In this document: piece after piece, positions 12,643 through 40,636 of the stretch | How the letters are laid out: each line of letters opens with the position of its first letter | Position numbering within the stretch: position 1 is the stretch's first letter | Assembly: GCA_963817955.1 (NCBI GenBank) | Contig: CAWFQK010000009.1 | Span: 32,001 to 96,000, forward strand | Length of the DNA: 64,000 bases | Source of the DNA: an uncultured Gemmatimonadaceae bacterium | GTDB taxonomy: Bacteria; Gemmatimonadota; Gemmatimonadetes; Gemmatimonadales; Gemmatimonadaceae | Direction: 5' to 3' | The notes under the pieces: model-generated | What the model was told of the DNA's origin: nothing | What the model saw: only the letters and a program-made list of their open reading frames with translations | The model's database searches: none | Translations under genes and position numbers: made by a program

Positions 12643-12662
12643 GGCGTGTCCCTGGGTGAGGC

Positions 12663-19303: not shown

Positions 19304-20383
19304 TCAGGTGGGCGTGAGCACAACTCGCTTTGCGAGCTGTCCATGATGCGCGTCGTCGAAGACCTCATTGATGCGCGAGAGCGGGTGGCGCTCGACGAAT
19401 TGCTTCACGTGAATGCGTCCGTTGGCGATCCATTCCAACAGCTCGGGATAGATGAGTGGGTCGGCCCCCCAGTTGCCGCGTGCCTCGGCGTCGTACGCCA
19501 TGAGGTTCGAGAGACACAGTTCGACTCGTTCGGCGGTATAGCCGACCACCGACAGCACGGCGCCGAAGCCTAGCAGGGCGTATGCCGTTTCCTGGCCGGC
19601 GCGCGTGCCTGAGGTCTCGAAGATCTTCCAGCAGTGCGGTGGCGCACCCAGTGCATTTGCCAGATCTCGCACGGCCTTGCGCGTGTCCTTCACGCTCATG
19701 CCATGAACGTCGATGCCGCCCTGCGCGCCGGCGGCACGTGCCTGCTCGAGCTTTGCGGCGCTCACGTCTACCGCGGCGACGATGGCACCGGCCGCGGCCG
19801 CGATCTGCACGCCGTGCACACCAATGCCGCCCGCACCGACGAATACGGCGAAGTCGCCGGCTTCGAGGCCGGAGCGCTTCACCGCCTGGAAGGGTGTCGA
19901 TATGGCATCGGAGACCACGGCGAGCTCCCACAAGTCGTGGCTGGCAAGGAGCGCGGAAGGCACAGGGCAGAGATAGCGCGCGGGGACGACAACGTGCGAC
20001 GCGAATCCGCCGTGGCGGTCGTTGCCCGGCATGACCTGGTTACGGCAGATTGCGCGGCGGCCTGCGCGGCAGAGATCACACTCGCCGCACGGCAAAACCG
20101 CTGGCACGATGACGGCCTGGCCGATGAGCCCCGCATCGACGCCCGCGCCGATTTCGCGGACCCACCCACTGATTTCGTGGCCAAGGACGAGCGGCAACGC
20201 AGACCGAGTCTTCACGCCCTGCATGAGGAAGGAGACGTCGGTGTGACAGACGCCGCAGCCGGCGACCTCCACGACCGCTTCGCCCGGCTCGGGCTTCCGA
20301 TTGGGGAGCGGACGGTGCTCCAGGCGCGCGCCGGGCGCGGTCATGAACCAAGCGTTCCACTCGGAACCCGCTACGTGCGTCAT
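19304..20383 (-). CDS. had: 6-hydroxycyclohex-1-ene-1-carbonyl-CoA dehydrogenase (Zn-ADH family)
   Basis: GCGVCHTD, LGHEISG, CGECDLC..C, QVMPGND, LSNLMAYDA..RGNWG; cluster context. Confidence 0.88.
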   Translation of the reverse strand: MTHVAGSEWNAWFMTAPGARLEHRPLPNRKPEPGEAVVEVAGCGVCHTDVSFLMQGVKTRSALPLVLGHEISGWVREIGAGVDAGLIGQAVIVPAVLPCGECDLCRAGRRAICRNQVMPGNDRHGGFASHVVVPARYLCPVPSALLASHDLWELAVVSDAISTPFQAVKRSGLEAGDFAVFVGAGGIGVHGVQIAAAAGAIVAAVDVSAAKLEQARAAGAQGGIDVHGMSVKDTRKAVRDLANALGAPPHCWKIFETSGTRAGQETAYALLGFGAVLSVVGYTAERVELCLSNLMAYDAEARGNWGADPLIYPELLEWIANGRIHVKQFVERHPLSRINEVFDDAHHGQLAKRVVLTPT

Positions 20384-20387
20384 TGTG

Positions 20388-22277
20388 TCATTCTCCTGTG
20401 CTGGCGACGCCATTGGCGTCGTCAAAGATGAAGGCCCCGCACTCATGGCACTGCGCGAGCGTGCGATCTCGTCCGGCGAAACAGGGGCGGTGGTCGTCCG
20501 CCAGGCGCAGCACTTTGCGCAGGAAGCGGCACTCGCACGCGGCGCTCGGCTCGTACACGGCATCGACGTAGCCGTGGGCGCGCTCGAGCACTGTGCGTAC
20601 GCGCACTTTGAGCGACGGCGTCAGCTCGCCGTCCTCGATCGACAGCTCGGAGCTGATGACGACGAAGGCGTTGACGCGCTCGTACTTCACGGCATGCGAC
20701 CGGTTGAACTCGAGGATGGTGTCGCGCAGCGACGCCTTCACCTCGCGTTCGGCGGCTGCGCGATCGGTGCCGAACTCCTCGGCGATACGGAAATAGTCGG
20801 GGAACACGAGTGCGGCGACGAAGTCACGGCCGTCGCCGGTGATGATCACGTGCCGGATGTACTTGTTCATTCCGGCGAGGCGGTTCTCGATGTCCGTCGG
20901 GACGACCTTCTCCGCGTTGAGCATTTTGAACACACGGTCCTTCCTGCCGACAAGCCGGAGCCCGTCGCCAGAGAGCTCGCCGAGGTCCCCGGTGTGGAAC
21001 CACCCATCCCCGGGAAGAGCACGCGTCGTCGCCGTCTGGTCCATGTAGTAGCCGGCCATGACGTTCAGACCGCGGATGAGAATCTCGCCGTCGGGTGCGA
21101 TGCGGACGCTGACGCCGGGAATGGGATAGCCAACCATGCCCGGCACCGCTCTGGCCTCGGCGGGATCGGTGAGTGTGCAGCAGGGCGAGGTCTCCGTGAG
21201 GCCCCACCCTTCGACGACGGCAACTCCCTTGGACGCGAAAAATTGCGACAGGTTCGCGGGGAGCGGCGCCGCCGCTGTGAATACGAAGCGTAGATCGGGA
21301 TGGAAGATCGACGCGTCGTCTTCCGGATGCGCTTGCGCGTGGGCCACGAGTTGCTGGTAGACCTTCGGCACGCTGAAGTAGATCGTGGGGCGCGTCTCGA
21401 TCCAGTTGCGGAGCAGGGCAGCAAAGTCGCGGCCCAGGGAATCGTCGATATAGATGGTCGCGCCATTATGCAGCGCGGTGTACTTCTCGAAGATCCCGCC
21501 GAAGCTGTGGTGCCAGGGGAGATACGATAGGAAACGGTCGTTCGACGTGACGTCCCACAGCGCCGCGAGGGCACGCCGCTGCGAGAGAATGTTGTCGTGG
21601 GTGAGGAGCACCCCTTTGAGAGCGCCGCTGGTGCCTGACGTGTACATCATGAGGCAGGGCGCATCAACGTCGATCGCGCATGACTGAGCGATGAACTCGC
21701 GGCGCGTGACGTCGCTGGGCCGCAAACGACGCACGACCTCATTGAAGGCGAAGCGGCCGTGCTGCGCCTCCGGCGTACTGTCGAAGGTCAACACCGCCTT
21801 CGCCGACGCTGGAATCTTGATGCGGTCCGCGTTCGCCGCATCGGCGAAGATCACGATGCTCGGCGCCGCGTGCTCGAGGAGCTCCGCGGTCTGCTCCGGC
21901 GAGTACCCGGCGAAGAGCGGGACGTACACGGCACCAAGTGCCATCGTACCAAATTCCGCCGTCAACATCGCCGACCGGTTCCGCGAGACGACCGCTACGC
22001 GGTCGCCTGGGACGGTGCCTTGCTCCATGAGAAAGCAGCGGAAGGCGCAGGCGTCGTCCAGCAGTTGGACCCACGACGTTGCCCGGTATGCGCCGTCGCG
22101 CCGCTCGCAACATACGGCGAGATCACCGAAACGTGCCGCATTACGGGCCAGCAGCGCGCCAACGCTCTCGCGCTCTCCATGGGGAGCCAGCGAGCATGTC
22201 AGCGTGTCGTCCTGACGCACCGACGCTCGCGCGTGATTCAACGGGAGCCGCCTGGAAAGCTGCTCGTCAGATTTCAT
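20388..22277 (-). CDS. AMP-dependent acyl-CoA ligase (long-chain FACS-like) with Cys-rich C-terminal extension
   Basis: YTSGTSG, EGWGLTET, WFHTGDLG, GELTPSLKV. Confidence 0.9.
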   Translation of the reverse strand: MKSDEQLSRRLPLNHARASVRQDDTLTCSLAPHGERESVGALLARNAARFGDLAVCCERRDGAYRATSWVQLLDDACAFRCFLMEQGTVPGDRVAVVSRNRSAMLTAEFGTMALGAVYVPLFAGYSPEQTAELLEHAAPSIVIFADAANADRIKIPASAKAVLTFDSTPEAQHGRFAFNEVVRRLRPSDVTRREFIAQSCAIDVDAPCLMMYTSGTSGALKGVLLTHDNILSQRRALAALWDVTSNDRFLSYLPWHHSFGGIFEKYTALHNGATIYIDDSLGRDFAALLRNWIETRPTIYFSVPKVYQQLVAHAQAHPEDDASIFHPDLRFVFTAAAPLPANLSQFFASKGVAVVEGWGLTETSPCCTLTDPAEARAVPGMVGYPIPGVSVRIAPDGEILIRGLNVMAGYYMDQTATTRALPGDGWFHTGDLGELSGDGLRLVGRKDRVFKMLNAEKVVPTDIENRLAGMNKYIRHVIITGDGRDFVAALVFPDYFRIAEEFGTDRAAAEREVKASLRDTILEFNRSHAVKYERVNAFVVISSELSIEDGELTPSLKVRVRTVLERAHGYVDAVYEPSAACECRFLRKVLRLADDHRPCFAGRDRTLAQCHECGAFIFDDANGVASTGE

Positions 22278-23109
22278 GAGCGGCGCTCTCGGCTGTGGTC
22301 ATCATTGGGTGGGGTTTGGTGGCTGCCGGGCCGACGGATGAGGCTCCGTCCCGCGCGGCGAGTGCCGCGCCAAACGCGCCCATCTCCTGTGGGTGCGGCG
22401 GCACGACGATGTCTACATGCAGTTCGCGGGCGAGCAGCGTCACCATGGTCGGGTGATGTGCAATGACACCGCCCGTGGCGACGACGCGGCCTTGCAGCAC
22501 GTCCATGGCGACGATGCGCTTCACGAGCGAGCGATACGCGGCCATGGCGAGATCGGCCGGGCGCTTGCCGCTGCGAATGAGCGTGAGCAACTCGGTTCCG
22601 GCAAACACCGTGCAGAAGCTCGACAACTCCAGGTCCTCTCGCGTTTCGGCGGTGAGCGCGTCCATGTCCTCGATGGGGACGCCGAGACGCAGCGCGATTT
22701 CATCAAGAAAGCTCCCGGTCCCGGCGGCGCACTTGCGATTCATGCGGTGCGAAACGCGCTGGCCTCCAACGTCGAGGCGAATGACCTTGGCATCTTGTCC
22801 ACCGATGTCGATGACGGTCAACGGTCCGGGAACGTAGAAGGCGGCGCCGCGTGCGTGGCAATCGAGCTCGGTTCTGGAGCCATGCGCAAACGGCACACTC
22901 TGCCGCCCGAAACCGGTGGACCACACAGCGTGGATGTCGCCGCACGCGCACCCTGCGCGCGCGAGGGCATCGGCGTACGCGCGTTCGGCCGCTCCGGCGA
23001 GATCGGCACCGGACCGCACGACAGACGTGCCGAGCACTCGTGCATCGCTGTCGATGATGACAGCCTTGGTGTTCCATGAGCCGCTATCGATTCCCGCATA
23101 CTGCATCAT
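22267..23109 (-). CDS. ATP-dependent acyl-CoA dehydratase activase (HgdC/BcrAD family)
   Basis: GIDSGSWNTK, STGFGR, DIGGQDAK, KCAAGTGSFL, SSFCTVF. Confidence 0.9.
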   Translation of the reverse strand: MMQYAGIDSGSWNTKAVIIDSDARVLGTSVVRSGADLAGAAERAYADALARAGCACGDIHAVWSTGFGRQSVPFAHGSRTELDCHARGAAFYVPGPLTVIDIGGQDAKVIRLDVGGQRVSHRMNRKCAAGTGSFLDEIALRLGVPIEDMDALTAETREDLELSSFCTVFAGTELLTLIRSGKRPADLAMAAYRSLVKRIVAMDVLQGRVVATGGVIAHHPTMVTLLARELHVDIVVPPHPQEMGAFGAALAARDGASSVGPAATKPHPMMTTAESAAHEI

Positions 23110-24347
23110 GCGCTGCTACCCCGATTGGCGATCTTCGCATCGGCGAGCTGCTCGACAAATCCCTCCATGTTCGTGCGCGTCTGCTCATCGGACACGCAGC
23201 GAAGATCGTTCACGTCACCATCCAGGATGAGCGATGGGATGCCGATGCGCTCGGTGAGACGGGCGGGCATGCCGTAGCGGCTGTTCGTGTTGTTCGGGCA
23301 GGTACGGCAGTCATGGTAGATGATACCGTCGACGTGATACAACTCGGCCATGCGCGCGATATAGTCTTCCTTCGCCTGCTCCGACCGGACGATGAACAGC
23401 TCCAGCGAGGCGCGCGCCATCGACTGGATGGGATTTGCGGGATCGAGTGCGGAGAAGATCCAGCTATTGCAATAGGTGGAGGCGACGACCGCGCTGCGAA
23501 ACTCGGCGAACAATGTGGATAGCGCGCGCAGCCGGCCCCAGATCGGCATGCCGTCCCAGAACAGGCGAAACGTTTCACCCTCGACGGCCGCGGCGTTCTG
23601 TTGCGCGCGCGTTTCCAGTTCGGCGAGCAGGACGCGGTAATACGCGCACGCCTCTTCGGCGCCCCTCAGCACGACGGCTGGGCCCATGTGGATGGTGCCG
23701 TCGAAGAACGTGAGTGGCGCTGGCTCATGCGCTGCCGTACGAAGGCACAGCTCCCACAGGTCCGAGCAGTCACGCGAATGGCGCACCGCGGCTTCGAGCC
23801 GCTGCGAATCCAGCCGCGTGCCGGCCACGGCTTCGAGCGTCGGCACGAGGCGCTCGATCTGCTTGGCGATGGCGTCCACGTCGTCCTGTGTGACGACTTC
23901 AAGCGAACGAGGCGAGCGAATGCCGACGACCGGTACGTTCCATGTACGCCCGTACCACTCGAACCAGTCGCGCACGTCGCGGCACTGGTTGGTATTGAAC
24001 ACGAGCACGTCTGGTCGCGGCGTGCCTGCAAGACCGTACGCTGTCAGCGGTGACTCGCCGGCGAGATATGCGCCGACGTCGCTCGTCAGATACGAGCAGA
24101 TTTCCTGCGAGTAGCCGTGCGCGTGCGCGAGCGGCATGTATCGGTTGGCCGTACGTGCCGCGCCGAGCATGGCCGCGTGGTTCTCTGGAAAGAACACGCG
24201 GAAGCCCAGGGCGCGCAGCAGTTCGGCGGGGCCGACGCTCGTGCACCAGGCGACCGGCGCGGTTCGCCGTTCCGCGGCGTCACCGAGGTCGCGAAAGTAC
24301 GCGTCCATCGTTGCTTTGAGCGTGGCGGCCGATGCGAGCGTAGTCAT
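23106..24347 (-). CDS. 2-hydroxyacyl-CoA dehydratase subunit (HgdA/B, FldB/C family)
   Basis: FPENHAA, EICSY, NTNQC, HDCRTC; cluster Cys intact. Confidence 0.9.
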   Translation of the reverse strand: MTTLASAATLKATMDAYFRDLGDAAERRTAPVAWCTSVGPAELLRALGFRVFFPENHAAMLGAARTANRYMPLAHAHGYSQEICSYLTSDVGAYLAGESPLTAYGLAGTPRPDVLVFNTNQCRDVRDWFEWYGRTWNVPVVGIRSPRSLEVVTQDDVDAIAKQIERLVPTLEAVAGTRLDSQRLEAAVRHSRDCSDLWELCLRTAAHEPAPLTFFDGTIHMGPAVVLRGAEEACAYYRVLLAELETRAQQNAAAVEGETFRLFWDGMPIWGRLRALSTLFAEFRSAVVASTYCNSWIFSALDPANPIQSMARASLELFIVRSEQAKEDYIARMAELYHVDGIIYHDCRTCPNNTNSRYGMPARLTERIGIPSLILDGDVNDLRCVSDEQTRTNMEGFVEQLADAKIANRGSSA

Positions 24348-25138
24348 GACGGCTCTCCAGCACGCAGCGTCATGAGCGCGGCCCCGACCGCGGCCGTGTA
24401 GATCGGCTCTTGCACGGCGTGCACGGGAATGCCGGCCAGTGATTCCAGGGCTTGCAGCACGCCCGGGAAGAACTCGACGACGCCGCCGCAGACATACAGT
24501 GGCTCGCAGAACCCGCCGATCTCGACAATGCGCTCGGCGACCGACCGCATGCAGCCGAGCGCGACCTCTTCTCTCGTCGCGCCGTCGCGCAGTCGTTCGA
24601 GCACCTCGGTCGCCGAGAAGACAGAGCAGTAGCTGCTGACGGTGACGGAATGTTCGGCGGCGGCGGCGAGCTCCTGGAGCCGCGTCGGCGGCACATCGAG
24701 GTGGCGCGCAGTGAACATGAGAAAACTGCCGATGCCCAGCGCGCAGCGCCGCACGCCGCGCGCATCCGTGCGGCGGCCGAGGTCATCGACGCGGATCACA
24801 TGCGGATCGCGTCCGCCGATGTCCACGAGCGTCATGGAGTGCGAGACGTGCTGGAAGGCGCCGAGTGCGTGACAGGCCCCGTTGCTGGCGCGCAGCGTTG
24901 CGTCGGCAACGCAGTCCATACCGAATCCAGTCGCGCCGATCGCATCGATCGCGTCTGCGTCGAGCTGTGCATCCTCGAGGGCCGCGGCCAGCGCCTCAAA
25001 GGCGCACGCCTGGAAATATCCGCGGATCGGCGTCACGGCGCGTCCGAGCACGCGCCCGTCCTCGCTCGCCACGACGGCTTTGACGCACTCCGTTCCGACG
25101 TCGATGCCGGCAGCGATTCTCATCCGATGATCGGGCAT
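24344..25138 (-). CDS. Second acyl-CoA dehydratase activase subunit
   Basis: GIDVGTECVK, ATGFG, DIGGRD, RCALGIGSFL, SSYCSVF. Confidence 0.85.
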   Translation of the reverse strand: MPDHRMRIAAGIDVGTECVKAVVASEDGRVLGRAVTPIRGYFQACAFEALAAALEDAQLDADAIDAIGATGFGMDCVADATLRASNGACHALGAFQHVSHSMTLVDIGGRDPHVIRVDDLGRRTDARGVRRCALGIGSFLMFTARHLDVPPTRLQELAAAAEHSVTVSSYCSVFSATEVLERLRDGATREEVALGCMRSVAERIVEIGGFCEPLYVCGGVVEFFPGVLQALESLAGIPVHAVQEPIYTAAVGAALMTLRAGEPS

Positions 25139-25157
25139 GCGTATCGCTCCTGTCGCC

Positions 25158-27448
25158 TCAGTACGCCACGAGGCGGTCGGTGAAGAGCTCACGGTGCTCC
25201 TCGATGAAATCCGCAAGCTGGCGCTCGAGCCGCTCGGCGGAAAAGAGACGGGCGTCGTGCGCGTCGGCCTCGAGGACGAGTGTCGGAATGTCCGTGAGCC
25301 GTTGGCCGCGTGCGCCAAGACCGTAACCCAAATGACTTGCCTCATGCGACGTGCGGCAATGATGAAGCACGATCGCGTTGACGCCGTATTCCTCCAGCCG
25401 CGAATCCACCGACGCGTTCCGGTAAGCTTCCGAGCGATTGCCGGAGACTCCGGCGTAGGCGGCCCCCATGCTCGAGAGTGGATCGCGACCGTCGAGTGCC
25501 GTGAGCGCAAAGGTGCTCGCGTACGTGGACGCGACGATCGCTACGCCGCGGGCGGCAAAAATGTCGGCCAGGGTGTGGCGTGCGCACCAGACGGGCGGAC
25601 CTTCCCAGTACACGCGATGTGTCTGGTTGGGAACAGCGGCGATGCCGCGAGCCATCCGATCCTCGAGCTCCGAGGCGAGCAGGCGATAGTAATCGACCGC
25701 TGCGCGCGTTCCGCGGAGCAGCACCAGCGGTGCCAGGTGAACCTGCGCGTCGAAGAATGTCAGCGGTGCCGGATTCGTGCGCGCCATGCCGAGGATATGC
25801 GCCCACAACAGGGAGGCTTCGGCGCTCGCGCTCACGACCTCGGAGAGGCGGCTCATCTCGAGCGAGCGTCCCGTGACTGTCTCCAGGCGCTCGATCAGCC
25901 GAGCCAATTGTGCCGTTGCCCCATCGATGTCTGTTCGCTCCAGCACGTGTGAGCCCGGGCGGGAAATGCAGGCCCACAGTCGGCACATGAAAATGCGAAC
26001 CATAGAACTCGAACCAGGGCTGCAACTCGTGGCCGGTGTTCGTGCTGTACACGACCACGTCCGGCCGCGGTGGGCCAGCAATGCCGTGCGTGGCGACGAG
26101 CGGGCTGGTGCCTGCCAGCAGCGCCCCGATATCCGAGCGCATGGCCGAACTGACGAACGGCGAGTACCCCTCGGCGGCGGCACGGGCCAGCGCGGCGTGC
26201 GACTGCCCGGTCATGCTGATCAGCGCCGCATGATGCTCGGGCAAGTAGGGCGTGACATCGAGCGCGCGGAGGATCTCCACCGGAGCGAGCGACGAGCACG
26301 CAGCCACTGTACGCAGCGGATCGGCCGCCGCGGCCGCCAGATCGACGTAGTACTCGTGGACGATCTCCTTCAGTTTGCGCGTACTCTCGAGGGGCGGAAC
26401 TGTACGGCCCGCCATCGGACGCCGGTGACCAGTGTGCCGTCCCGTCGCACTCGCGACCGGTGGTCCGCCAGTCGCGCGATGCTCCACGATTCCCAGTTGC
26501 TGAACCACCTGCTCCTTCTGGAGGAAGGTGTTCCGCTCGCGCGAATGAATGAAGTGCGTGATTGCCGCATTGTGTGGCGCCTGCATTCCCAGCCGCGTGG
26601 CTTCAGCCACGACGGCGCCGTTCAGCGCGTCGACCTCGGTCCGCTTACCGCGCGACAGGTCCTGCCACATGGAAGGGCGATTCTTGCCGAGGGAGCGCAA
26701 CGAACTGATCACCGGGCGGAAGGGATCTTCCTCGTCGACGATCGGAATGCCTTTGGCGCGCATCACGGCGATGATTTCCTCACAGAGCGCGCGCATGAAC
26801 GCCATGAGGTCCGGATCGCCGAGCATTTCGCGGCAGGTGAGACCCGTGAGCGCCGACGTGGGATTCACGACCGCGTTGTGGAGAAGCTTCTGCCAGATCG
26901 CGTGCTCCACATTGTCAACGAGGTCAGTGTTCAGGCCCGCCCGATTGAAGATCTCGGCGACAGCCTCCGTGACAGGGGAGCGCTCACCAACGAACGGGGC
27001 GATCTGAATGGGCTTGATGCCCGTGCGGTAGTTCAGACGGCGCGGACCGGCGTGCTGGATGCTGTGATACGTGATGCCGCAGAGCACGCGCCCCGGAGCG
27101 ACGAGCGACGCCAGCTTCTGCGCGTTGCCAACGCCGTTCTGGAGCGAGAGAAACAGCGTCTTGTCTGAGCACGCTGGCAGTATGGCGCGGACGGCACTCT
27201 CCGTCTCATAACCCTTCACGGCCACGAAGACGAGATCGAGATCCGATAGCTCATCGACGCTCGAGACGACGTTCAGCGGAACGCATACCTCTTCTTCGCC
27301 GACGCGGGAGATGAGGAGGCCGTCCTGCCGCAGGAGATGTGCGCGTGCCGCGTTCACCTCGAGCAGCACGACGTCCTCGCCAGCTCGCGTCAGTTGCGCG
27401 CCGACGAGTCCGCCCAGCGCGCCGGCTCCGACGAATGAGTATTCGCAT
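25158..27448 (-). CDS. PanE/ApbA-family 2-oxoacid reductase fused to a 2-hydroxyacyl-CoA dehydratase-like subunit (indels near the start and at ~25950)
   Basis: VGAGALGG, VAVKGY, SLQNGVG, WQKLLHNAVVNP, PSMWQD...TEVDALNG, then in frame LPEHHAA...WEGPPVW...LVLEAD, paralogous to 23106-24347. Confidence 0.8.
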
Positions 27449-27476
27449 TTCGGGCCCCCTCCGACCGCCACGTGGC

Positions 27477-28264
27477 TCATTTATTACTCCAGACCGGCCG
27501 TCGCTTTTCGAAGAAAGCTGCGATGCCCTCGCGCACGTCGTCGGTCTGCATCAGTTCCTCGAGGAACACTCGCTCTGCCTCCTCTCGGGCCTCGCCGAAC
27601 GGCCGGTGCAAGAGCGCACGGGTCAGGCGCACGTTCATCCGCATCACGGCCGCACTCGACGCGGCGCAGGTCGGCCAGCACCTCGTCGAGCGCGCCGGCG
27701 AGCGCCTCCGGTGCGACGACGCGCGAGACCAATCCCAAGGCGCACATTTCATCCGCGGAGTACACGCGTCCGCGCGCCGTGACCTCGATCGCTCGGCCGA
27801 CACCGATGCGCGCGGGCGAGCCAGGCGACACCGACCGGCGCAAAGAAGCCGAGCCGGATCTCCGGTTGCCCGAAGGTGGCACGGTTGCTGGCGAGCAGGA
27901 TGTCCGCCATCATGGCGAGCTCGAACCCCGCACCGAGCGCCGCGCCATCGACCGCGACCACGATCGGCAGCTCGCTCTCGCCAAGCGCGGCAAAGAGGCG
28001 GCTGAAGGCTCGCGATCATTGCGGGCGCGTTCTCAGGCCGATGTTCGCCGACGTCGGCGCCCGCCGAGAAGGCGCGTCCCTCCGCTTGCAGCACGAATGC
28101 CTTGAGCGACGGCTCGCGTCCGGCGGCGTTCGACCGCGGTGGCGAGCTCGCAGCATTACCTCCGCCGTCGACAATATTCACCGGCGGCGCGCAGAGCGTG
28201 ACGAACGCCACGTCGTCTTGCGTGGCGTAGCGCACCAAATTCGTTACTTCTGTGCTGCTGGCAT
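27477..28264 (-). CDS. dch: Cyclohexa-1,5-diene-1-carbonyl-CoA hydratase-like crotonase (frameshifted)
   Basis: PPVNI, AFSAGADVGEH, ALGAGFEL, FGQPEIRLGFFAP, ERVFLEELMQTDDVREGIAAF across frames. Confidence 0.75.
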
Positions 28265-28276
28265 GCCGCTCTCCGG

Positions 28277-29039
<763 letters not shown>

Positions 29040-29041
29040 CG

Positions 29042-30039
29042 TCACATCTTACTCGGCTGCCTGATCATGCGATCCGGCAACGCCGCGCCGCAAGTGCCGC
29101 AGAAGGTGAACTGCTTCGGGAATGCCCTTCGCACCGCACTTCGCGCACGTCCTTTGCCGTACGGCCCCCAGAGGAATTCGCTGCTGCCGCTCTCGCTGCG
29201 GCCGCCTGCGCGCGCAGTCCGCATGAAATCGATCTTCCGCTTCTCGACGAACGCCTGCATGCCCTCGTACGGCTCGAGCGTCGTGAAATGCGTCGAGAGC
29301 CAGTCGCGCGCGTGGCCGACGGTCGCGTGCCACGGCGCTTCCTTCCAGTAGTTCACCTGCTGCTTGGTGTAGCGCGTGCACTCGGGGAACTTCTCGAGCA
29401 GCTGCTTGACGAGCGCGCGCACTTCGTCATCGAGCTGCGCGCGCGGCACCACGCGGTTCACGAGCCCCACTCCAGCGCCGTTTGCCGCGGGGATGCGCGG
29501 GTTCAGGAACAGCATCTCGCGAGCGCGGCGGTCGCCGACAGTGATCGAGAGCCACTGCGTGGCGCCGCCGCACGCGACGCTGCCTACGCTCGTCCCGACC
29601 TGGCCGAGGTACGTGTCGTCGGCCATCACCGCGAGGTCGCAGGCGAGCTGCGTCTCGTTGCCGCCGCCGACGGCGATGCCGTTGATGCGCGCGATCGTCA
29701 CCTTGCCGCTTCGCAGGATGCTCTCGATGTACTTGGCGAAGAGCCCCATGTACTTGAAGTAGTCGTGCGGGCTCTGCGTGTAGACGTGCCTGCGTACTCC
29801 TTCACGTCGCCGCCGGTGCAGAACGCCTTTTCGCCGGCGCCCGTCAGCACGATGACGCCGACGCTGTCGTCGTTCGACGCGTCGTCGATCGCCGTGATGA
29901 GCTCCTGCAGCGTGACGTGGTGTAGCAGTTGAAGGACTCCGGCCGGTTGATCGTGATGCGGCCCACCCAGTCCTTCTTCTCGTACAGGATGTCCTTGAAG
30001 CCGAAGCCTGGCAGCCTCCTTCGAGGCGAAATAGTTCAT
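29042..30039 (-). CDS. oah: 6-oxocyclohex-1-ene-1-carbonyl-CoA hydrolase (frameshifted)
   Basis: [35 protein letters not shown]-terminal EFLWGPY..CAKCG..FCGTCG. Confidence 0.82.
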
Positions 30040-30074
30040 TTGGGTGTCGTAATCCTCTCTGTCGTCCCGATCGT

Positions 30075-31301
30075 TCAGCGCACGCTGACTTTCAACACCA
30101 CCGCGGCGGCGCTGTCGCCCGCGGCACAGCCAGTGAACAGTCCATAGCCGCCGCCTGCGATCGCGAGATCCTCGATGAGCTCGATGATCGACCGGAGCCC
30201 GGTCGGTGCCTGCGGGTGTCCCCACACGAGCGAACAGCCGTGGCGGTTCATCTTCTCGGGATCGAGCGACAGCTCGCGCGAGAGGTAGACGTCGTTCACG
30301 GCGAACGGGTTGTGCGACGTCGATGCTCGCGAGCTGGTCCGCGCCGATGCCCGGCGCGTTCCAGTGCCATGCGCGGCGGCCGGCACGACGGCCATCGGCA
30401 TGAAGCCCTTCTTCACACGCGCTTGTCCGTACGAGAGCAGCTGCACGTCGATCGTTCGCCATTGCGTCGCCATGCTGCGCGCGCGCGGTCGCGATCGCCA
30501 ATGAGCACCATTGCCGCGCTCCCGTCGGCGGGATGCGTCTGCGTGCCGAAGGTGACCGTTCCGCCCTCGAGCACTGGCCGGAGACCGGCCAGTCCTGCCG
30601 CAGTTCGTTGCATGCACGCCCTCGTCGCCCGTGACGGTGGCCATGCACCTGCTTACCGCGGCGTCCTTCACCTCGAGCGGACCACGGCATATAGCGCCGC
30701 AGGAAGGCGGCGTCGTCGGCCAGCGCGCGCGCGTACTGCGCATAGCGCAGGAGCGTGATCTCCTCCTGCGCCTCGCGCGATCGATGCCCACTTCGCGCGC
30801 CACGTTCTCGGCGGTCTGCATCATCGAGTTCTTGGCGTACGGATCGTGACCGAAGCTGTCGAGCACGAGGTTCTCAGAGTCTCCCGTGCCGCCGGGGCCG
30901 GCCGGGTTGGGATAGAACACGTGCGGACCGTTGCTCGTGCGGTCGGCCGTCGCGGCGAGATAAGACGCTCGCCCCTCCAGCGTGAAGTTCCTCGGCGCCC
31001 TCGACCAGACAGCGCACCGACGTGGCGCATGCCTGATTGACCGTCGGGCCGCTCGCGTGGCAGAGGCCGGCGAGACCGGCGAACCACGGGGCGCCGTAGA
31101 AGGAGTCCTTGCTGGCACCGTCATGCCGAGGCACATGCCATCGACATCGCTCGGCGCGATGCCGCGCTCAGCGAGCGCGCGTGCTGTCACCTCGGCCGCG
31201 AACGGAATGGGCTGGAGGGTGGCAAAGCTGCCTTGCCACGCACAGAAGGGTGACGACCAATAGGCGCCATAGGGAATCCAGACATCGTGGAATTGTGTCA
31301 T
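30075..31301 (-). CDS. Thiolase family protein (frameshifted)
   Basis: [46 protein letters not shown]. Confidence 0.88.
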
Positions 31302-32062: not shown

Positions 32063-34466
32063 TCATTCAGCGGTCGCCCGGGGAACAGCGGGGAACTCGT
32101 GCGGCAACGGGCCGGACAGGCTTGGTACCGTGCCGCGCCGGCTCGCGAGGCCGCGGAGAATCTTCTCCGGCGTGATCGGCAGTTCGGTCACGCGCACGCC
32201 GCACGCGTCGTAGATCGCGTTGGCGATCGCGCCCAGCACGGGCAGCAGCGAGCCCTCGCCGATCTCCTTCGCGCCGAACGGACCGCGCGGCTCGAAGCTC
32301 TCGACGGCGGCGGTGTGGATCTCCGGCGACGTCGCAGATCGTCGGAATGAGGTAGTCGTGCAGGTTCGCGATTCGAGAGCCGTCCGCCGGCGCCGACGAT
32401 CGTGTCCTCGAGCAGCGTTTCTCCCAGTCCCATGATGATCGCGCCCTCCACCTGGCCGTGGAAGCGTCACCGGATTGATCACCGTGCCTGCGTCGCTGTA
32501 ATCCGTGAAGCGGTCGACCGTGACGTAGCCGGTCTCGAGGTCGACGGTCACTTCGGCGATGGCGGTCGAGAAGCTGTACGCGGGCGAGGTGCCGACGGTG
32601 CCTCCCTTGAACTCGCCGCCGAGGTGCTTGCGGCGGCGTGTACGACCCCGTGCCGACCACCGGGCCGCCTTCCGAGAACGCGAGCCGCGCCGCGGTCGGC
32701 CCAGTCCATCCCCACCGACGGATGCTCGCGGACGAAGATGCGCCCATCGCGCGCCGCGAGGTGCCGCCGCGGTCGCAGCCGAGCTCGCGCGCCGCCACCT
32801 CGCGCAGCTGCGCCGTGACGTCGCGCCGCCATCTTCACGGCGTTGCCCGCCCATCAGCGTGACGCGGCTCGAGTACGAGCCGAGGTCGAGCGGGCTGACC
32901 GTGGTGTCGCAGTCGGCCATCCACACCCATTCGTACGGCACGCCGAGCTCCTCGGCGGCCATCTGCACGAGCACCGTGTCGGAGCCCTGGCCGATCTCGG
33001 CCGCCGCGATGTGCAGCGTAACGCCGGTGCCGTCCTCGTGCACGCGGATCATCGCGTTCGAGTGCGGGAATGTCCGAGCGGTAGATCGGGTAGCCCGCGC
33101 CCGACACGAATCCGCCGCACCCTACGCCGATCCCCTTGCCCGCCGGCAGCTGTCCCTTCTTCTCGGCCCAGCCGAGTCGCCTCGCGCGCCCGATCGAGCG
33201 TCTGCGATGAACTCGCACGACGAAATGTCGAGCGCGTTGCCGGTGCGCGTGTTCGGCTCCATCGCGTTCCGAAGCCGGATCTCGAACGGGATCGAGCCCG
33301 AGCTCCTCGGCCATCATGTCGAGCAGCGACTCGAACGCGAAGCGCGGCTGCGGCACGCCGTGGCCGCGGAACGCGCCGGAGGCGGGCAGGTTGGTGTAGA
33401 CGCGCGTGCCGTCGTACTTGTAGTTCGGAATCTTGTAGAGCGTCGGCAGCATCGAACCGGCGTAGTACGCGGTGATCACGCCGTACGACGTGTACGCTCC
33501 GCCGTCGAGCACCACGCGGTGCTCCACCGCGGTGATCGTGCCATCCTTCTTCACGCCGATCTTGAGATCGATGTACTGCTTGTGGCGGCCGCGGAAATGC
33601 CGGTACATCTCCTCGCGCGAGTACTCCATGCGCCACGGGACGGCCGGTGAGCCTGCGCGAGGATGGCCGCGCAGAAATCGAGCGGCGTGGCCTCGGCCTT
33701 GGCGCCGAACCCGCCGCCGACCGCCGGTCGGATCACGCGGATGTTGCCCATCGGGATGCCGAGCATACGCGACAGCGAGCGATGCAGGTAGTGTGGCGTC
33801 TGCGTGGACGACCAGAGCGTGAGACGCTCGCCGTGGTGCTCCCAGCGCGCGAGCGCCGCGTGCGGTTCCATCGGCGACTGGTACGTGCGGTTGCCGACGA
33901 AGCGCTGCTCGCGCACGAGGTCCGCCTCGGCGAATCCCGGCCTCGACGTCGCCGAAGTGCCAGTCCACGCGCGTGTTGATGTTGCCGGCATAGCGCGGCT
34001 TCTCGGGATGGATCACCGGCGCGCCTGGCGCCATCGCCGCCTCCGGGTCGAACACCGCGGGCAGTTCCTCGAACTCGACCTCGATGAGCGTCAGCGCGCG
34101 CTCGGCGGTCTCCTCGTCGATCGCGGCGACGGCGGCGATCTCGTCGCCCACGTAGCGCACGCGCTCCTTGGCGAGGATCTGCTCGTCCTCGCGCGCCGGA
34201 CTCACGCCGTACCACGCGTCCGGGCACGTCCGCCCCGGTGATCACCGCGAGCACGCCGGGCAGCGCGCGCGCCTTGCGACACATCGATGCGCCGTGATGA
34301 ATGCCGTGCGCGACCGGGCTGCCCGAGGATCTTGCCGACGAGCGTGTCTGGGAGCCGGATGTCAGCCGTGTACTTGGCGCGCCCCGTGACTTTGTCCGGC
34401 GCGTCGTACCGGGTTACCCGTGACCGACGACGCGTGATCGCGCTACTTGGTCGCGCTCTCCGTCAT
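32063..34466 (-). CDS. hcrA: 4-hydroxybenzoyl-CoA reductase alpha-like molybdopterin subunit (frameshifted)
   Basis: DKVTGRAKYTAD, GGGFGAKAE, AFRGHG, AEIGQGSDT, DLGSYSSRVT, GPFGAKEIGEG. Confidence 0.75.
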
Positions 34467-34965
34467 GCGCGTGCGGTGCGCGTCGAGCGGCGTCCGCTCG
34501 AAGTCCGAGCAACGTGCGACCGCCTTCAGCATCCGCGGATACGTGGCGCACCGGCAGAGGTTGCCGCGAGCGCGTCTGTGATTTCGTCGCGCGACGGATG
34601 CGGATTGTGGTCGATGAGCGCCTTGGAGGACATCAGCGCGCCGCTCGTGCAGTAGCCGCACTGCAGCGCCCCATGCTTGACGAACGACTTCTGCAGCGGA
34701 TGCAGTTCGCTGCCCTGCGACAGACCCTCGATCGTCGTGACTTCCGTTGCCCTCCGCCTCCGCGGCGAGCGTGAGACATGCCGCCGTCGCCTCGCCGTCG
34801 ATCTGCACCGTGCATGCGCCGCAGTCGCCGGTTCCACAGCCGCTTTTGGTGCCGGTGAGATCCAAGTTCGTCGCGCAGCGCGGCGAGCAGGGTCGTGTTG
34901 GGCTTCACCGCCAATGTGGCCGGCTGTCCGTTGACGGTCAGGTGAACGAGCCGCTCGCCGCTCAT
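34463..34965 (-). CDS. hcrC: 2x[2Fe-2S] subunit (HcrC/CoxS-like, frameshifted)
   Basis: TGTKSGCGTGDCGACTV, QCGYCTSG, GNLCRCATY. Confidence 0.8.
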
Positions 34966-35841
34966 GTGTGCCTCGTGTTGGCCGTGGCGCGTTTGGACGC
35001 GGATTCGAGCGCGCGGAACGCCAGCACCGCGATGATTTCACGCCGAAAGTCGGCTGATCCGCGGACGTCGCTGATCGGTCGCGCAGCGGCAACGCACGCC
35101 TGCGCCGCGCGTGAGAACAGCGCCTTGGAAGGTTGCTCGCCGCACGAGTATCGATGCGACTTCCGGCACCAGCATGGCGGTAGGTGCGACCGCGCCGAGT
35201 GCGACACGTGCGCCCACGATGCGGGGGCCGTCGAAGTCGAGACGAGCCGCGACGGACGCGACGGCAAGCGACATCCCGCGGCGCAGTCCGAACCGCTCGA
35301 AGCTCGTGCCGCTATTTGGCGGAGCCGACGGGAATCTCAGCTCCACGAGCAGCTCGCCGGGGGCGAGCACGGTGCGGCGCGCATCCACGAAGAACGCTCC
35401 GGCTGGAACCTGCCGCGTGCCATTCGCCGACGCGATGTGCAGCGTTGCGTCGCCGATCAATGCCGCGGGTGGCAGATCGGCGCACGACACGGCGCGACAG
35501 AAGTTGCCGCCCACCGTTGCTCGGCTGCGGACTTGCGGGCTGCCGATCGAGCGCGCGGCTTGGGCAAGTGCCGGAAGCCAACCCTCGACGAGCGGCGACC
35601 GCGCCAGCTCGGCCACGGTCGTGAGACTGCCAATCCGCAGCGCGTCATTCTCCACACTGATGCCGCGCAATGCCGCAATGTCGCGCAGAGCGATGAGGTC
35701 GACGGCCTGTTCCCGCCCACGCTGATAGTCGGGAATCAGCTCGGTGCCACCGGCGAGGAACACGGCGCTGCCGCCGAGCTGCTGTGCGAGTACGCAGGCG
35801 TCGCTCACGGTCGCCGGCCGATGGTACCGGAAATCGAGCAT
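34962..35841 (-). CDS. FAD-binding subunit (CoxM/HcrB-like, no [4Fe-4S] insert; frameshifted near 3' end)
   Basis: LAGGTEL, IGSPQVRSRATVGGN, ALGAVAPT, PISDVRGSADFR. Confidence 0.85.
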
Positions 35842-35843
35842 CG

Positions 35844-36718
35844 TTAGGCCGGCACCGCGGTAGCAGCCGCCCGCCACGAGGGCGTCGTTTGTCCGAGCTT
35901 CTTGTAGCGGAAGCCGCCCCATATCGCGGCGCCGATCGCGCCCGCGAAGATAGCATCGGGATGCGTGATGACCTCACGGGACATGCCATCGCGATCGGCC
36001 TTTCTCGCCAGCGCATCGTGCAATGCGCCGAGCATGCCGACATCCGACGCCAGGCCTCCGCTCACGAACACCGCGCCGTCGAACTCGCAGCGATCGCAGG
36101 AGACGCACGAACCGTTCGGCCATGCTCTCATGCACGCCGCGCAGGATGTCGGCTGTGGTGATCCCGCGCGACACCATGTTGATCACGTCGGTCTCCGCGA
36201 GCACGGCACAGATCGAGCTCACCTTTTCCGGCTTCGTTGCCTCGAGCGACAGGGCTGCCGATCTCGTCGTGCGACACACCGAGGTAGCGGGCGATGTTCT
36301 CCAGGAACTGCCCCGATCCCGACGCGCACTGGCTCGTCATCTTGTAGTCCGAGCACGCGGCCGTGCTCGTCCATGGCGACGCGCCCGCGTGTGGAGCGCG
36401 CCGACGTCGAGCACCGCGCTGATGCCGGGCGCCAGGTACAGCGCACCGCGAGCGTGGGTCGTCATGCCGTAGAAATGTCCCGTTGCGAAGGGGACATCCG
36501 CGCCCTCGCCCGTGGTCGCCACGTAGTGGATGGCGTCCACGCCAGCCGGCGTCCACCGCCTGCCTCGAATACTTCATCCACCACCTTCGATGATCTCGCG
36601 GCGACGGAGCGCGGACCGACACATGGGCGAGCACGTATGTTCGTCCGTGCCGCCGGTGCGCATGACGGTCACTTTCACGGCCCCACTGCCGACGTCGATT
36701 CCCGCGGTCACGTGACAT
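35844..36718 (-). CDS. bcrD: Benzoyl-CoA reductase subunit D (frameshifted)
   Basis: GIDVGSGAVK, ATTGEG, HFYGMTTHARGA, YKMTSQCASGSGQFLENIARYLG, VSSICAVLAETDVINMVSRG. Confidence 0.9.
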
Positions 36719-37996
36719 CAGGCCGCCATCCTCTTGGCGAAGAGAGCCGCGCCCAGGGCGCCGGTGTAGATGCTGTCGGGCGAAATATTGAGCTTGCGTC
36801 GCCGTAGTTCTCTTCCACCAGCTCACGGATGGCGCGCACGGCGGCGGGATTCTTGGCCACGCCGCCAGTAAACGTGAATTCGATCCGATCACGCCGCCCG
36901 ATCGTGCCAGCAGGCTCATAGCCCGCAGCACGATGGCGCGGTGCAATCCAGCGAGAATGTCCTCGCGCTTCTCGCCCAGCGATAGCCATTCGCGCAGTTC
37001 GGCGCCCGCGAACACGGTGCACGTGGAGTTGATCTTCACGCGCGCTTCGACTGTTCGGCAAGCGGGCCAAGCTCGTGGAGGCCGAGGTTCATCTCGTCGG
37101 CAATGTATCCGAGGTAGCGACCACAGCCCGGCGGCACAGCGGTCATTCATCTGGAAGCCCGTGACGATTCCGTCGGCATCTACCTGGATGGCCTTGGTGT
37201 CCTGGCCGCCGATATCGAGCACGGTCCGTGTATCCGGGAAGATCGCATGCGCTCCCAGCCCGTGACACAGGATCTCCGAGCGAATCTGCTCCTTGGGGAA
37301 GGGAAGGCGCGCGCGTCCATACCCCGTGCCAACCGTTGCGGCAGGTGTGAGGTCGGTCGTCACGGCGTATTCCACTGCGTCCGCGAGGGTGGCCGGTTTG
37401 CCGACACGTTCGAGTGCGTCCCCGATATGATCGCGGAAATCGAGGTCCAGTCGGCTCGTTCTCCGACGCGGATGATGCACTTGTCATACACGCCGAGGAG
37501 CCGGTCGTAGGTCACACCGCTGCGCGCCCGGCCGATCTGCTCCGCAATGCGCATGTACGCCGAGCCCGCCGCGTCGCGGAAGAAATCGGAACGCGCCACC
37601 GGTGGCTGCTTGAACCGGATCTCTTCTTCGTTGGCGATCGCTGCGCAGATTTCTTGAATTGCACCTCTGAGCGCCGACTGCGGCCCAGCGGGCATGGAGT
37701 GTTCGATTTCCTCGGCCAGGAGCTGCTCCAGACGACGAAGCTGGTGCAGGAACTGCTCCATCACGAATGCGCGGCGCAGGCTGTTCGACCGCCTGGCCGC
37801 CGTCTCGCCGGCCGCGACGCTGTTGAATGAGTCCGAACCGTGCGTTGATGAACGCTTCCGTCCGGGCGACCGCCGCCGCGAGATCGTAGTTCGATCGGGA
37901 GTTCGTGATGCCACGGCCGAGCATGAGGCCGTCTTCCCCGAGGATGACCGCCTTGGTGGTCGTCGAGCCCAGGTCGATGCCGATGACGCAGCTCAT
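36718..37996 (-). CDS. bcrA: Benzoyl-CoA reductase subunit A (frameshifted)
   Basis: [67 protein letters not shown]. Confidence 0.9.
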
Positions 37997-40483: not shown

Positions 40484-40504
40484 GCGACCTCCGGAACATG
40501 TCTC

Positions 40505-40560
40505 TATTTCGAACGAACGTTCGATCGTATATAATGCAACTGCCGCGACTGCTGTCAAGA
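40505..40560. promoter_or_regulatory. Divergent promoters with palindromic operator
   Basis: TTGACA on the minus strand (40553-40558), TATAAT on the plus strand (40530-40535), near-palindrome TCGAACGAACGTTCGA at 40509-40524. Confidence 0.65.
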
Positions 40561-40636
40561 GTTCGCCGGCGGCCGGCGTCGTCCGGCCGCGCGCCGTGGG
40601 CACAGAAACGTCCGTCATGAACCGGAGGAGCGCGAC

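Follow-up and report, generated by a model that had tools for sequence, protein, structure and literature searches.

Gene Module Within a Benzoyl-CoA Cluster

The DNA stretch analyzed in this study, referred to as the window, comprises 64,000 nucleotides of an uncultured Gemmatimonadaceae bacterium (GenBank assembly GCA_963817955.1, contig CAWFQK010000009.1, positions 32,001 to 96,000) and features a G+C content of 65%, the source genome amounting to 4.5 Mb in 9 contigs. Its minus strand carries a benzoyl-CoA pathway cluster in which a module of five genes (20388-27480) is embedded, encoding an acyl-CoA ligase, ATPase 1, a subunit of the HGD-D family (termed alpha), ATPase 2, and a fusion of a ketopantoate reductase (KPR) domain to a second HGD-D subunit (KPR::HGD-D). 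As deduced from Pfam and NCBIfam assignments, the cluster reads, from high to low coordinates, bcrC, bcrB/A/D, an Hcr-like molybdenum enzyme, thiolase, a BadI/Oah-like gene, a short-chain dehydrogenase/reductase (SDR), a dch-like gene, the five-gene module, and had. An earlier prediction made from the sequence (hereafter, the original prediction) had placed five co-oriented, tightly spaced genes between dch and had, and all of them are present, with neighbors overlapping by a few bases or lying at most 20 nt apart. Within the whole source genome, two HGD-D systems only were detected, both of them inside the window. The features of the module are as follows:

20388..22277, minus strand: AMP-forming acyl-CoA ligase, 629 aa, FadD-like with an AMP-binding_C_3 tail (Pfam AMP-binding, 238 bits; under every NCBIfam cut-off)
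22267..23109, minus strand: ATPase 1, 'activase' of the BcrAD/BadFG type, 280 aa (PF01869, 152 bits; TIGR00241, 197 bits, over the cut-off)
23106..24347, minus strand: alpha, HGD-D subunit, 413 aa, with three [4Fe-4S] cysteines, presumed catalytic (PF06050, 207 bits)
24344..25138, minus strand: ATPase 2, second BcrAD/BadFG ATPase, about 264 aa (PF01869, 115 bits; single-frame 88% match to the 264-aa ortholog in the congeneric genome G003)
25158..25951, minus strand: fusion gene, 3' part of the HGD-D region, in another frame than the 5' part (ORF 25158-26183: PF06050, 111 bits, profile positions 94-340 of 342; residues 530-795 of the G003 ortholog map to 25958-25161, frame -3)
25945..25958, minus strand: frameshift site of the fusion gene, net +1 compared to the G003 ortholog (DNA alignment and frame change between tblastn segments)
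25957..26382, minus strand: fusion gene, 5' part of the HGD-D region, lacking the first two cluster cysteines (PF06050 profile positions 3-90)
26530..27435, minus strand: fusion gene, KPR (PanE/ApbA) domain (ApbA, 110 bits, and ApbA_C, 122 bits; TIGR00745, 248 bits vs. a cut-off of 141)

The closest solved relatives of the ligase are a feruloyl-CoA synthetase and a fatty-acyl-CoA synthase (132 bits), those of ATPase 1 being HadI (166 bits) and MbdQ (158 bits); the BzdQ, BcrA, and BcrD models all scored ATPase 1 under their own cut-offs. For ATPase 2, the listed open reading frame (ORF) extends to 25510, and homology begins at 25138, which is approximately the true start. The fusion gene spans 25158-27480 and starts at 27480 or at a start codon nearby. 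Close homologs of its product carry Gemmatimonadota labels.

Conservation of the Fusion Protein and Its Gene Neighborhood

A PanE-like reductase fused to a dehydratase-like subunit had been proposed for this locus. The fusion is real, being encoded by at least 146 stretches in a scan of one genome per species and by an uninterrupted 795-aa ORF in G003; in the window, however, it does not form one open frame, since the tail of the 712-aa ORF 25342-27480 is out of frame. Among the best 120 clusters listed in a protein search with the fusion, lengths ranged between 705 and 785 aa and identities between 56% and 93%, with the same three Pfam domains throughout, and every named record but one called this protein of about 750 aa '2-dehydropantoate 2-reductase'. 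The 80 loci kept from the genome scan bear the record labels Gemmatimonadota, Acidobacteriota, Krumholzibacteriota, Eisenbacteria, Myxococcota, 'Fibrobacteraceae', and unclassified bacteria.

Gene order around the fusion is strongly conserved. Where the contig left room, ATPase 2 directly follows the fusion at all 69 loci, and the dch-like hydratase directly precedes it at 62 of the 69. To describe the wider neighborhood, genes within 10 kb of the fusion were counted at the 40 loci featuring at least 6 kb on both sides. The had gene was found at 40 of the 40, the Hcr-like alpha subunit at 37, the dch-like gene and a TetR regulator at 36 each, the SDR at 34, alpha together with ATPase 1 at 29, the window-type ligase at 22, and any bcr gene at 20; as these loci are mutually related and were selected by the query, the counts describe conservation and do not represent independent trials. 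The arrangement is far beyond chance, and the expected conservation of the module with benzoyl-CoA pathway genes is borne out by had, the Hcr-like gene, and the dch-like gene in particular.

Subunit Features

The cysteines Cys84, Cys122, and Cys350 of alpha align with the [4Fe-4S] ligand cysteines of HadB and BzdO, and all three are kept in 46 of 48 orthologs. Furthermore, a Glu and a Trp of alpha align with Glu65 and Trp46 of BzdO, and Val is found where BzdO has His131; the roles of these BzdO residues are taken from PMC11971306. At the three ligand-cysteine positions of the fused HGD-D subunit, Ser, Gly, and Ser/Thr/Ala were found in 78 of 78 fusions, which suggests that the fused subunit probably binds no cluster. 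The two HGD-D subunits are 38% identical to each other. A double cubane in alpha was considered and rejected: the extra residues Cys35 and Cys293 are not conserved across the clade, and the score obtained on NF040772 was 55 bits vs. a cut-off of 350.

The two ATPases share 37% identity, and both cluster cysteines of each align with those of HgdC. In the KPR domain, the motif GAGALGG, the Lys in WQKLLHN (K217), and the Glu in RTEVD (E301) are invariant or nearly so in 24 fusions, the Lys and Glu occupying positions that are catalytic in the E. coli KPR. The domain accordingly resembles the PanE/ApbA family in both Pfam domains, in passing the TIGR00745 cut-off, and in its glycine motif and Lys/Glu pair; it differs in being fused N-terminally to an HGD-D subunit or an ATPase within a catabolic cluster, and it does not occur as a free protein in this lineage. 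Some PanE/ApbA members are D-2-hydroxyacid or D-mandelate dehydrogenases, and PDB entry 3wfi is among the structure matches of the domain. The context of the domain speaks against ketopantoate specificity and a role in pantothenate synthesis.

Family Placement and Comparison with Known Systems

Alpha reached 189 bits on the curated HadB model (cut-off 750), 128 bits on BcrB (487), 66 bits on BzdO (449), and 55 bits on the double-cubane model (350). Compared to solved structures, it scored 162 bits against HadB (3o3m), 104 against MbdO, and 68 against BzdO. The best Bcr/Bzd scores of the module genes ranged between 66 and 128 bits, with cut-offs between 313 and 578. An exhaustive search with alpha recovered 1594 representatives at E ≤ 0.001. 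The tree was computed from 84 full-length representatives together with window, G003, and locus sequences, fragments shorter than about 380 aa being excluded; its support values are SH-aLRT values only, and its reference sequences do not include FldB, HgdA, LcdA, THNCR, Hbr, or Mbd subunits. One clade (support 100) unites alpha and the fused subunit with ten other representatives; it is separate from BcrB and from the HadB clade, a member of which (P0232) passes the HadB cut-off. The clade of alpha lies inside an 81-row group that holds HadB and is devoid of BcrB (support 94), the rest of the tree base being poorly resolved, with weak deep branches. The original prediction had named a grouping with aryl-CoA reductases as an outcome that would contradict a dehydratase; in the tree obtained for the 23106-24347 protein, the HGD-D subunits do not group with BcrB.

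The best family and structure matches are thus of the HadBC/HadI type of Clostridioides difficile (3o3m, 4eht), namely HadB for alpha and HadI/HgdC for the ATPases; relatives of HadBC comprise the phenyllactate dehydratase FldABC/FldI and the 2-hydroxyglutaryl-CoA dehydratase HgdAB/HgdC. Features in common are an HGD-D subunit with a three-cysteine [4Fe-4S] cluster, a BcrAD-type ATPase with two cluster cysteines, and a 2-oxoacid reductase and a CoA-activating enzyme encoded alongside. Several differences are apparent. The partner subunit of the module has no cluster cysteines, whereas HadC contains a [4Fe-5S] cluster according to PMC11971306. The module encodes two paralogous ATPases instead of one; its reductase, a member of the KPR family, forms one polypeptide with an enzyme subunit; CoA activation would proceed via ATP-dependent ligases and not via a family III CoA-transferase; and the module sits in a separate clade and in a context of oxidative aromatic degradation, not amino-acid fermentation.

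Since the combination of a reductase, a CoA-activating enzyme, and an HGD-D/ATPase pair matches the triad of clostridial 2-hydroxyacyl-CoA dehydratase pathways, we propose that the module encodes an ATP-activated (R)-2-hydroxyacyl-CoA dehydratase-type system, representing a new branch of the benzoyl-CoA reductase (BCR)/2-hydroxyacyl-CoA dehydratase (HAD) family and acting most likely on aryl-lactyl-CoA. We consider this proposal evenly balanced between being right and wrong.

The class I BCRs, i.e., BcrCBAD, BzdNOPQ (8s02), and MbdONQP (9g87/9gai), also consist of two HGD-D subunits and two different ATPases, are encoded in benzoyl-CoA clusters, and possess a catalytic subunit with a three-cysteine [4Fe-4S] cluster as well as the Glu and Trp residues described above for BzdO. 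They differ from the module in their six-cysteine [8Fe-9S] subunit, described in PMC11971306; no ligand cysteines of this kind are conserved in the fused subunit. Furthermore, BzdN and BzdO share 12.7% identity according to the same source, compared to the much closer HGD-D pair of the module, and His131 of BzdO is replaced in alpha.

On account of these likenesses, the module could alternatively represent an ATP-dependent reductase of the class I BCR type, or a reductive dehydroxylase, acting on a substituted aromatic or alicyclic CoA ester such as hydroxylated benzoyl-CoA, with the KPR domain reducing the keto tautomer of the product or preparing the substrate. We regard this as unlikely. 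The four-subunit composition with two distinct ATPases corresponds to that of BcrCBAD, BzdNOPQ, and MbdONQP; MbdO and MbdQ are the second-best solved relatives of alpha and ATPase 1; the position between dch and had, near Hcr-like genes, was found in all phyla seen; and the three ways in which KPR is fused to a catalytic or ATPase subunit would be sensible if the product were unstable. However, a double-cubane site is absent, and the partner subunit is without any cluster cysteines; all Bcr/Bzd equivalog scores are far under their cut-offs, and neither HGD-D subunit groups with BcrB. Moreover, a simpler architecture (see below) has just one alpha and one ATPase gene, the CoA-activating enzyme and 2-oxoacid-type reductase beside alpha are the pattern of dehydratase pathways, and the module also occurs in genomes with a class II BCR, a type assigned to strict anaerobes in PMC11971306. 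For BzdNO, the same paper proposes that the [8Fe-9S] cluster of the second subunit stores two electrons. With one cluster per dimer and no store for a second electron, a redox-neutral, electron-recycling dehydration would fit the module better than a two-electron Birch reduction. In summary, the module belongs to a known enzyme family, but differs from every described member in its clusters, its subunit composition, and its fusions.

Further Architectures and CoA-Activating Partners

The KPR domain is linked to the alpha/ATPase unit by three fusion types, namely with the Cys-less HGD-D subunit, with a Cys-bearing HGD-D subunit, and with an ATPase. The second type is represented by P0124, a single representative in which KPR is fused to an alpha-like subunit retaining the three cysteines. 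The third type was found at L122:11211-13049, where KPR and a BcrAD-type ATPase form one 612-aa protein. Among the best 120 clusters listed for this KPR::ATPase family, lengths ranged between 591 and 649 aa, all named rows but two were called 2-dehydropantoate 2-reductase, and the named records carry Bacteroidota-type (Chitinophagaceae, Saprospiraceae), Ignavibacteria, and Calditrichaeota labels. The KPR::ATPase architecture comprises one alpha and one ATPase gene. In ten metagenome loci (L105, L109, L118, L122, L124-L127, L147, L171), the order is ligase, alpha, KPR, ATPase, thiolase, and had, with bcrCBAD upstream and Oah-like, dch, and fadJ genes downstream as far as the contigs reach. Further loci feature alpha, a ligase, and a free KPR, the ATPase alone being transcribed divergently. 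The simplest reading of these arrangements would be that a KPR/alpha/ATPase unit was duplicated, after which the cluster disappeared from one HGD-D copy and KPR from the other.

At the 55 loci where the sequence extends far enough to either side of alpha, a CoA-activating gene was located within 3 kb of alpha in 49 cases (30 window-type AMP-ligases, 11 AMP-ligases of a second type, and 8 ADP-forming acyl-CoA synthetases), and KPR within 6 kb in 44; these loci, too, are mutually related and query-selected, so that the counts reflect conservation and not independent trials. The exchange of unrelated CoA-activating enzymes at one fixed position indicates that activation of a free acid belongs to the unit. 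Together with the three KPR fusion forms, these counts support the core logic put forward in the original prediction, i.e., a 2-oxoacid reductase followed by CoA activation and an ATP-activated HGD-D enzyme. The ADP-forming acyl-CoA synthetase, of about 692 aa, was observed beside or near alpha-type genes (L133:9974-13305, L148:10004-13527, and 17 further loci) in lineages without the AMP-forming ligase. Unlike the latter, ADP-forming acyl-CoA synthetases can run both ways. Three metagenome loci (L148, L168, and L169) carry genes resembling indolepyruvate oxidoreductase and PaaK next to KPR/alpha, and three others (L107, L114, and L162) carry such genes in the vicinity of the unit.

The triad evidence applies equally to a dehydratase for an aliphatic 2-hydroxyacyl-CoA, e.g., (R)-2-hydroxyglutaryl-CoA, by which 2-oxoglutarate and glutaconyl-CoA would be connected with the lower pathway, or a branched-chain substrate. 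Glutaconyl-CoA is an intermediate of the lower benzoyl-CoA pathway. HadB, the closest solved relative of alpha, acts on an aliphatic substrate; locus L133 features glutaconyl-CoA decarboxylase-like and acyl-CoA dehydrogenase genes near the alpha-type gene; and L070 encodes a CoA-transferase most like succinate-glutarate CoA-transferase, although this enzyme could equally activate benzoate. The AMP-ligase, however, drives the conversion of acid to CoA ester and would therefore lead from 2-oxoglutarate to glutaconyl-CoA, for which there is no obvious use within a benzoate operon, and the genes universally and tightly linked to the module are had, dch, and the Hcr-like genes, not those of glutaryl-CoA enzymes. 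An aliphatic substrate thus appears improbable. Whatever probability remains falls to something other than the dehydratase readings (aryl or aliphatic) and the reductase reading.

Ring Reductases and the Lower Benzoyl-CoA Pathway

At least four HGD-D matches were obtained in 38 of 45 fusion-bearing genomes, which fits a class I Bcr-type pair beside the module, bearing in mind that these are draft genomes and that matches do not represent copy numbers. As for the other seven, a single AOR-family gene was found in five and none in one, the last being outside the AOR search. One of the five AOR-family genes was compared and is a BamB ortholog, matching structure 4z3w over its full length (1068 bits). 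Of four Bcr-carrying genomes, three had no AOR gene and one had three matches. In most genomes checked, the module hence co-occurs with either class of benzoyl-CoA reductase. Since most of these genomes also carry an apparent class I pair or a BamB-like gene, it is unlikely that the module is itself the dearomatizing ring reductase, and the possibility of a second aryl-CoA reductase, raised as an alternative in the original prediction, is weakened by the same observation.

In five other genomes, exactly one had gene was found in each, always adjoining the module, together with one Dch-like hydratase each. Three of the five (G043, G044, and G045), all without a BadI-like gene in the cluster, possess a canonical Oah (577-582 bits), which is missing from G041 and G042, where the cluster has the BadI-like gene. 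The BadI-like hydrolase at the Oah position (window 29042-30000; L009:14506-15477) scored 199 bits on BadI and 186 on Oah, both under the cut-off; it may represent a non-orthologous ring-cleaving enzyme. No Dch or Oah over the cut-off was found elsewhere in genome G000. Furthermore, a search of G000, G003, G043, and G044 revealed no canonical benzoate-CoA ligase, and benzoyl-CoA may therefore originate from another feeder in these genomes.

The Hcr-like enzyme is unlike the textbook 4-hydroxybenzoyl-CoA reductase in that the 2Fe-2S and Mo subunits are combined in one fused protein (960 aa; intact form at L012:1745-5529). The intact fusion in its G003 form reached 936 bits on TIGR03194, just under the cut-off of 995. 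For the FAD subunit of the enzyme, the match to the HcrB model is limited to positions 3-120 of 321, and the subunit resembles an ordinary XdhB. HcrB has an extra Fe-S insertion, which, as judged from this partial match, the FAD subunit may lack. An Hcr-type enzyme is needed only for para-hydroxylated compounds.

Proposed Reaction Sequence

According to the aryl-lactyl-CoA dehydratase reading, the route would begin at the KPR domain, where a 2-oxo acid would be reduced by NAD(P)H to the (R)-2-hydroxy acid, and the ligase would convert the hydroxy acid to its CoA thioester, a step for which other lineages would use the second AMP-ligase type or the ADP-forming acyl-CoA synthetase. In an alternative order, the CoA ester would be formed first and the KPR domain would act on the ester. 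ATPase 1 and ATPase 2 are predicted to form a heterodimer with a bridging [4Fe-4S] cluster, injecting, driven by ATP, one low-potential electron into the single [4Fe-4S] cluster of alpha; alpha would then remove the alpha-hydroxyl via a ketyl radical to give the 2-enoyl-CoA. The fused subunit, having lost its cluster, would probably be a structural partner for alpha that also carries the KPR domain. No gene for a ferredoxin electron donor, searched for as a CxxCxxCxxxC(P/A/G) motif in open frames of more than 45 codons, was found in the window, the G003 contig, or four other loci. By context, the likeliest substrates are phenylpyruvate and 4-hydroxyphenylpyruvate, which would yield cinnamoyl-CoA and coumaroyl-CoA via the aryl-lactyl-CoA esters. 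The hydratase, dehydrogenase, and thiolase might shorten these to benzoyl-CoA and 4-hydroxybenzoyl-CoA, which would be passed on to the Hcr-like enzyme and the ring reductase. The case for an aromatic substrate is modest and is built on the benzoyl-CoA context, the conserved Hcr-like enzyme, and a few indolepyruvate oxidoreductase- and PaaK-like neighbors.

A comparable chemistry was hypothesized for BzS1, a benzene-degrading sulfate reducer, in PMC13416013 (2026), where phenylpyruvate is converted via phenyllactyl-CoA and cinnamoyl-CoA to benzoyl-CoA, including a 2-oxoacyl-CoA variant. The route is hypothetical there too, and the authors left the dehydratase step unassigned. The chemistry matches our proposal; the organism and the genes differ, and neither a KPR fusion nor the terms dehydropantoate, ketopantoate, or activase occur in the available portions of PMC13416013. 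Likewise, the Krumholzibacteriota study PMC10936416 counts bcrABCD genes, and the term dehydropantoate is not in its main text as far as accessible. Our literature search found no paper pairing ketopantoate reductase with 2-hydroxyacyl-CoA dehydratase, and a search on 3-methylbenzoyl-CoA reductase/MbdO returned only unrelated papers among the matches listed.

Several observations weigh against an aryl-lactyl-CoA dehydratase. Two different ATPases and four subunits in total follow the class I BCR pattern and not that of a single homodimeric HAD activator. Alpha is far under the HadB equivalog cut-off and outside the HadB clade, and its HadB match is not specific, since a true BcrB reaches 161 bits on the same model. 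The KPR and dehydratase steps are not consecutive unless KPR acts on the CoA ester, which makes three independent fusions somewhat surprising; the fusions would be easier to explain if KPR took a CoA ester or an unstable product. The neighboring ligase or CoA-transferase might instead activate benzoate for the pathway. The canonical lower pathway likewise requires the hydratase, SDR, and thiolase, which are the sole candidates for Dch and the ring hydrolase in several genomes. The assignment of these enzymes to beta-oxidation of cinnamoyl-CoA, as originally suggested, therefore does not discriminate, for they are equally the sole candidates for Dch and for 3-hydroxypimelyl-CoA oxidation. Indolepyruvate oxidoreductase genes lie near the unit in only about six metagenome loci, none of them Gemmatimonadota-type. 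Finally, the relatedness of the surveyed loci and the frameshift in the fusion gene of the source genome have to be taken into account. The frameshift, the cysteine loss in the fused subunit, the significance of two different ATPases, and the replaceable nature of the AMP-ligase had been overlooked in the original prediction.

Condition of the Local Sequence and Neighboring Genes

Outside the module, the cluster comprises the following features:

19304..20383, minus strand: had, 6-hydroxycyclohex-1-ene-1-carbonyl-CoA dehydrogenase, downstream neighbor of the module (TIGR03201, 424 bits vs. a cut-off of 339; single-frame, 83% identity to the G003 ortholog)
27480..28367, minus strand: dch-like enoyl-CoA hydratase, upstream neighbor, in at least three frames here (TIGR03189 fragments; three tblastn frames)
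28277..31301, minus strand: SDR, BadI/Oah-like ring hydrolase, and thiolase, all fragmented here (partial Pfam/NCBIfam matches; intact in G003; 10-21 single-base gaps per kb)
32063..35922, minus strand: Hcr-like molybdenum enzyme, FAD subunit and 2Fe-2S domain fused to Mo subunit, fragmented here (Pfam/NCBIfam)
35856..40570, minus strand: bcrC (intact), bcrB, bcrA, and bcrD (in pieces), Thauera-type class I benzoyl-CoA reductase (bcrC: TIGR02263, 493 bits vs. 421; BcrA/B/D fragments)

In the congeneric genome G003, the same 23.8 kb is collinear at 79% identity and every gene is open. Compared to G003, had, the ligase, ATPase 1, alpha, ATPase 2, bcrC, and a fadJ-like gene are single-frame in the window (tblastn), whereas dch, the SDR, the BadI-like gene, thiolase, hcr (including hcrB), bcrD, bcrA, and bcrB are each split over two or three frames and all intact in G003. 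Consequently, the complete bcrCBAD set formerly assumed for this locus is not present in that form, bcrC alone being single-frame. The G003 proteins scored 678 (BcrB), 495 (BcrC), and 339 bits (BcrD), all over the cut-off, with BcrA reaching 575 vs. 578; the intact dch-like hydratase of G003 scored 144 bits vs. a TIGR03189 cut-off of 292. In the fusion gene, HGD-D positions 3-90 lie in ORF 25342-27480 and the remainder in ORF 25158-26183, the net +1 shift at about 25945-25951 resulting from a 2-nt insertion at 25945 and a 1-nt deletion at 25951, as deduced from the DNA alignment to G003.

These defects could be real, reflecting very recent decay that left the module and most of the cluster nonfunctional in the source genome. 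In one alignment to G003, 4-21 single-base gaps per kb were counted at 28-38 kb, compared to 0-6 per kb at 19-27 and 39-42 kb; the fusion gene bears one net frameshift; and the cluster is carried by only 1 of 24 other genomes sampled from the genus, indicating that it is dispensable there. However, substitution divergence from G003 is flat over the 23.8 kb (15-24% per kb), the broken protein pieces are as G003-like as the intact genes, an excess of indels only is typical of long-read consensus error, and of the six genes that the module and had comprise together, five are single-frame. Decay therefore seems rather unlikely to us, and the indel excess at 28-38 kb looks more like a local consensus error in a long-read assembly. 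The occurrence of the cluster in one congener in 24, yet with a gene order kept across phyla, suggests patchy inheritance or horizontal transfer.

Beyond the cluster, a class I/II aminotransferase gene is located at 45136-46677, with a phosphofructokinase gene between it and the cluster; it was not used as a link to amino acids. Two long overlapping ORFs (532 and 519 aa; 15748-17863, minus strand), each with a Rieske domain, may represent either a single frameshifted gene or a pair of neighboring Rieske proteins. A DUF1501 gene and a PSD1/PSCyt2 (DUF1553/DUF1549) gene, a pairing best known from Planctomycetes, adjoin each other at 11323-14216, shortly upstream of the aromatic cluster.

Significance for Anaerobic Aromatic Degradation

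Anaerobic degradation of aromatic compounds converges on benzoyl-CoA, and, to our knowledge, the known routes feeding into it come from a handful of cultured Proteobacteria. The carriers of the module types described here are uncultured, with record labels including Gemmatimonadota, Acidobacteriota, Krumholzibacteriota, Myxococcota, Bacteroidota, Ignavibacteria, and others. The module thus represents a conserved, unstudied enzyme system at the core of the benzoyl-CoA pathway across many uncultured lineages. Since public records name its reductase-bearing proteins after a pantothenate enzyme, pathway reconstructions from metagenomes miss the module.

Tentatively, as something possible rather than probable, the module may constitute a fourth architectural type in the BCR/HAD family, featuring one [4Fe-4S] cluster per catalytic dimer, a cluster-less partner bearing a ketoreductase, and a heterodimeric ATPase. 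It would then be the key enzyme of a widespread, as yet unrecognized anaerobic route from phenylalanine and tyrosine via aryl-pyruvate and aryl-lactyl-CoA to benzoyl-CoA, working with either class of ring reductase and bypassing the phenylacetate/phenylglyoxylate route. If the aryl-lactyl-CoA dehydratase assignment is true, aromatic amino acids would reach benzoyl-CoA by a redox-neutral route, with two carbons kept as acetyl-CoA. A series of cluster loss has been drawn for the family, leading from the double cubane via BCR to HAD, in PMC11971306. The module would extend this series by a partner subunit without any cluster, and would also supply a naturally heterodimeric activase that does not belong to a ring reductase.

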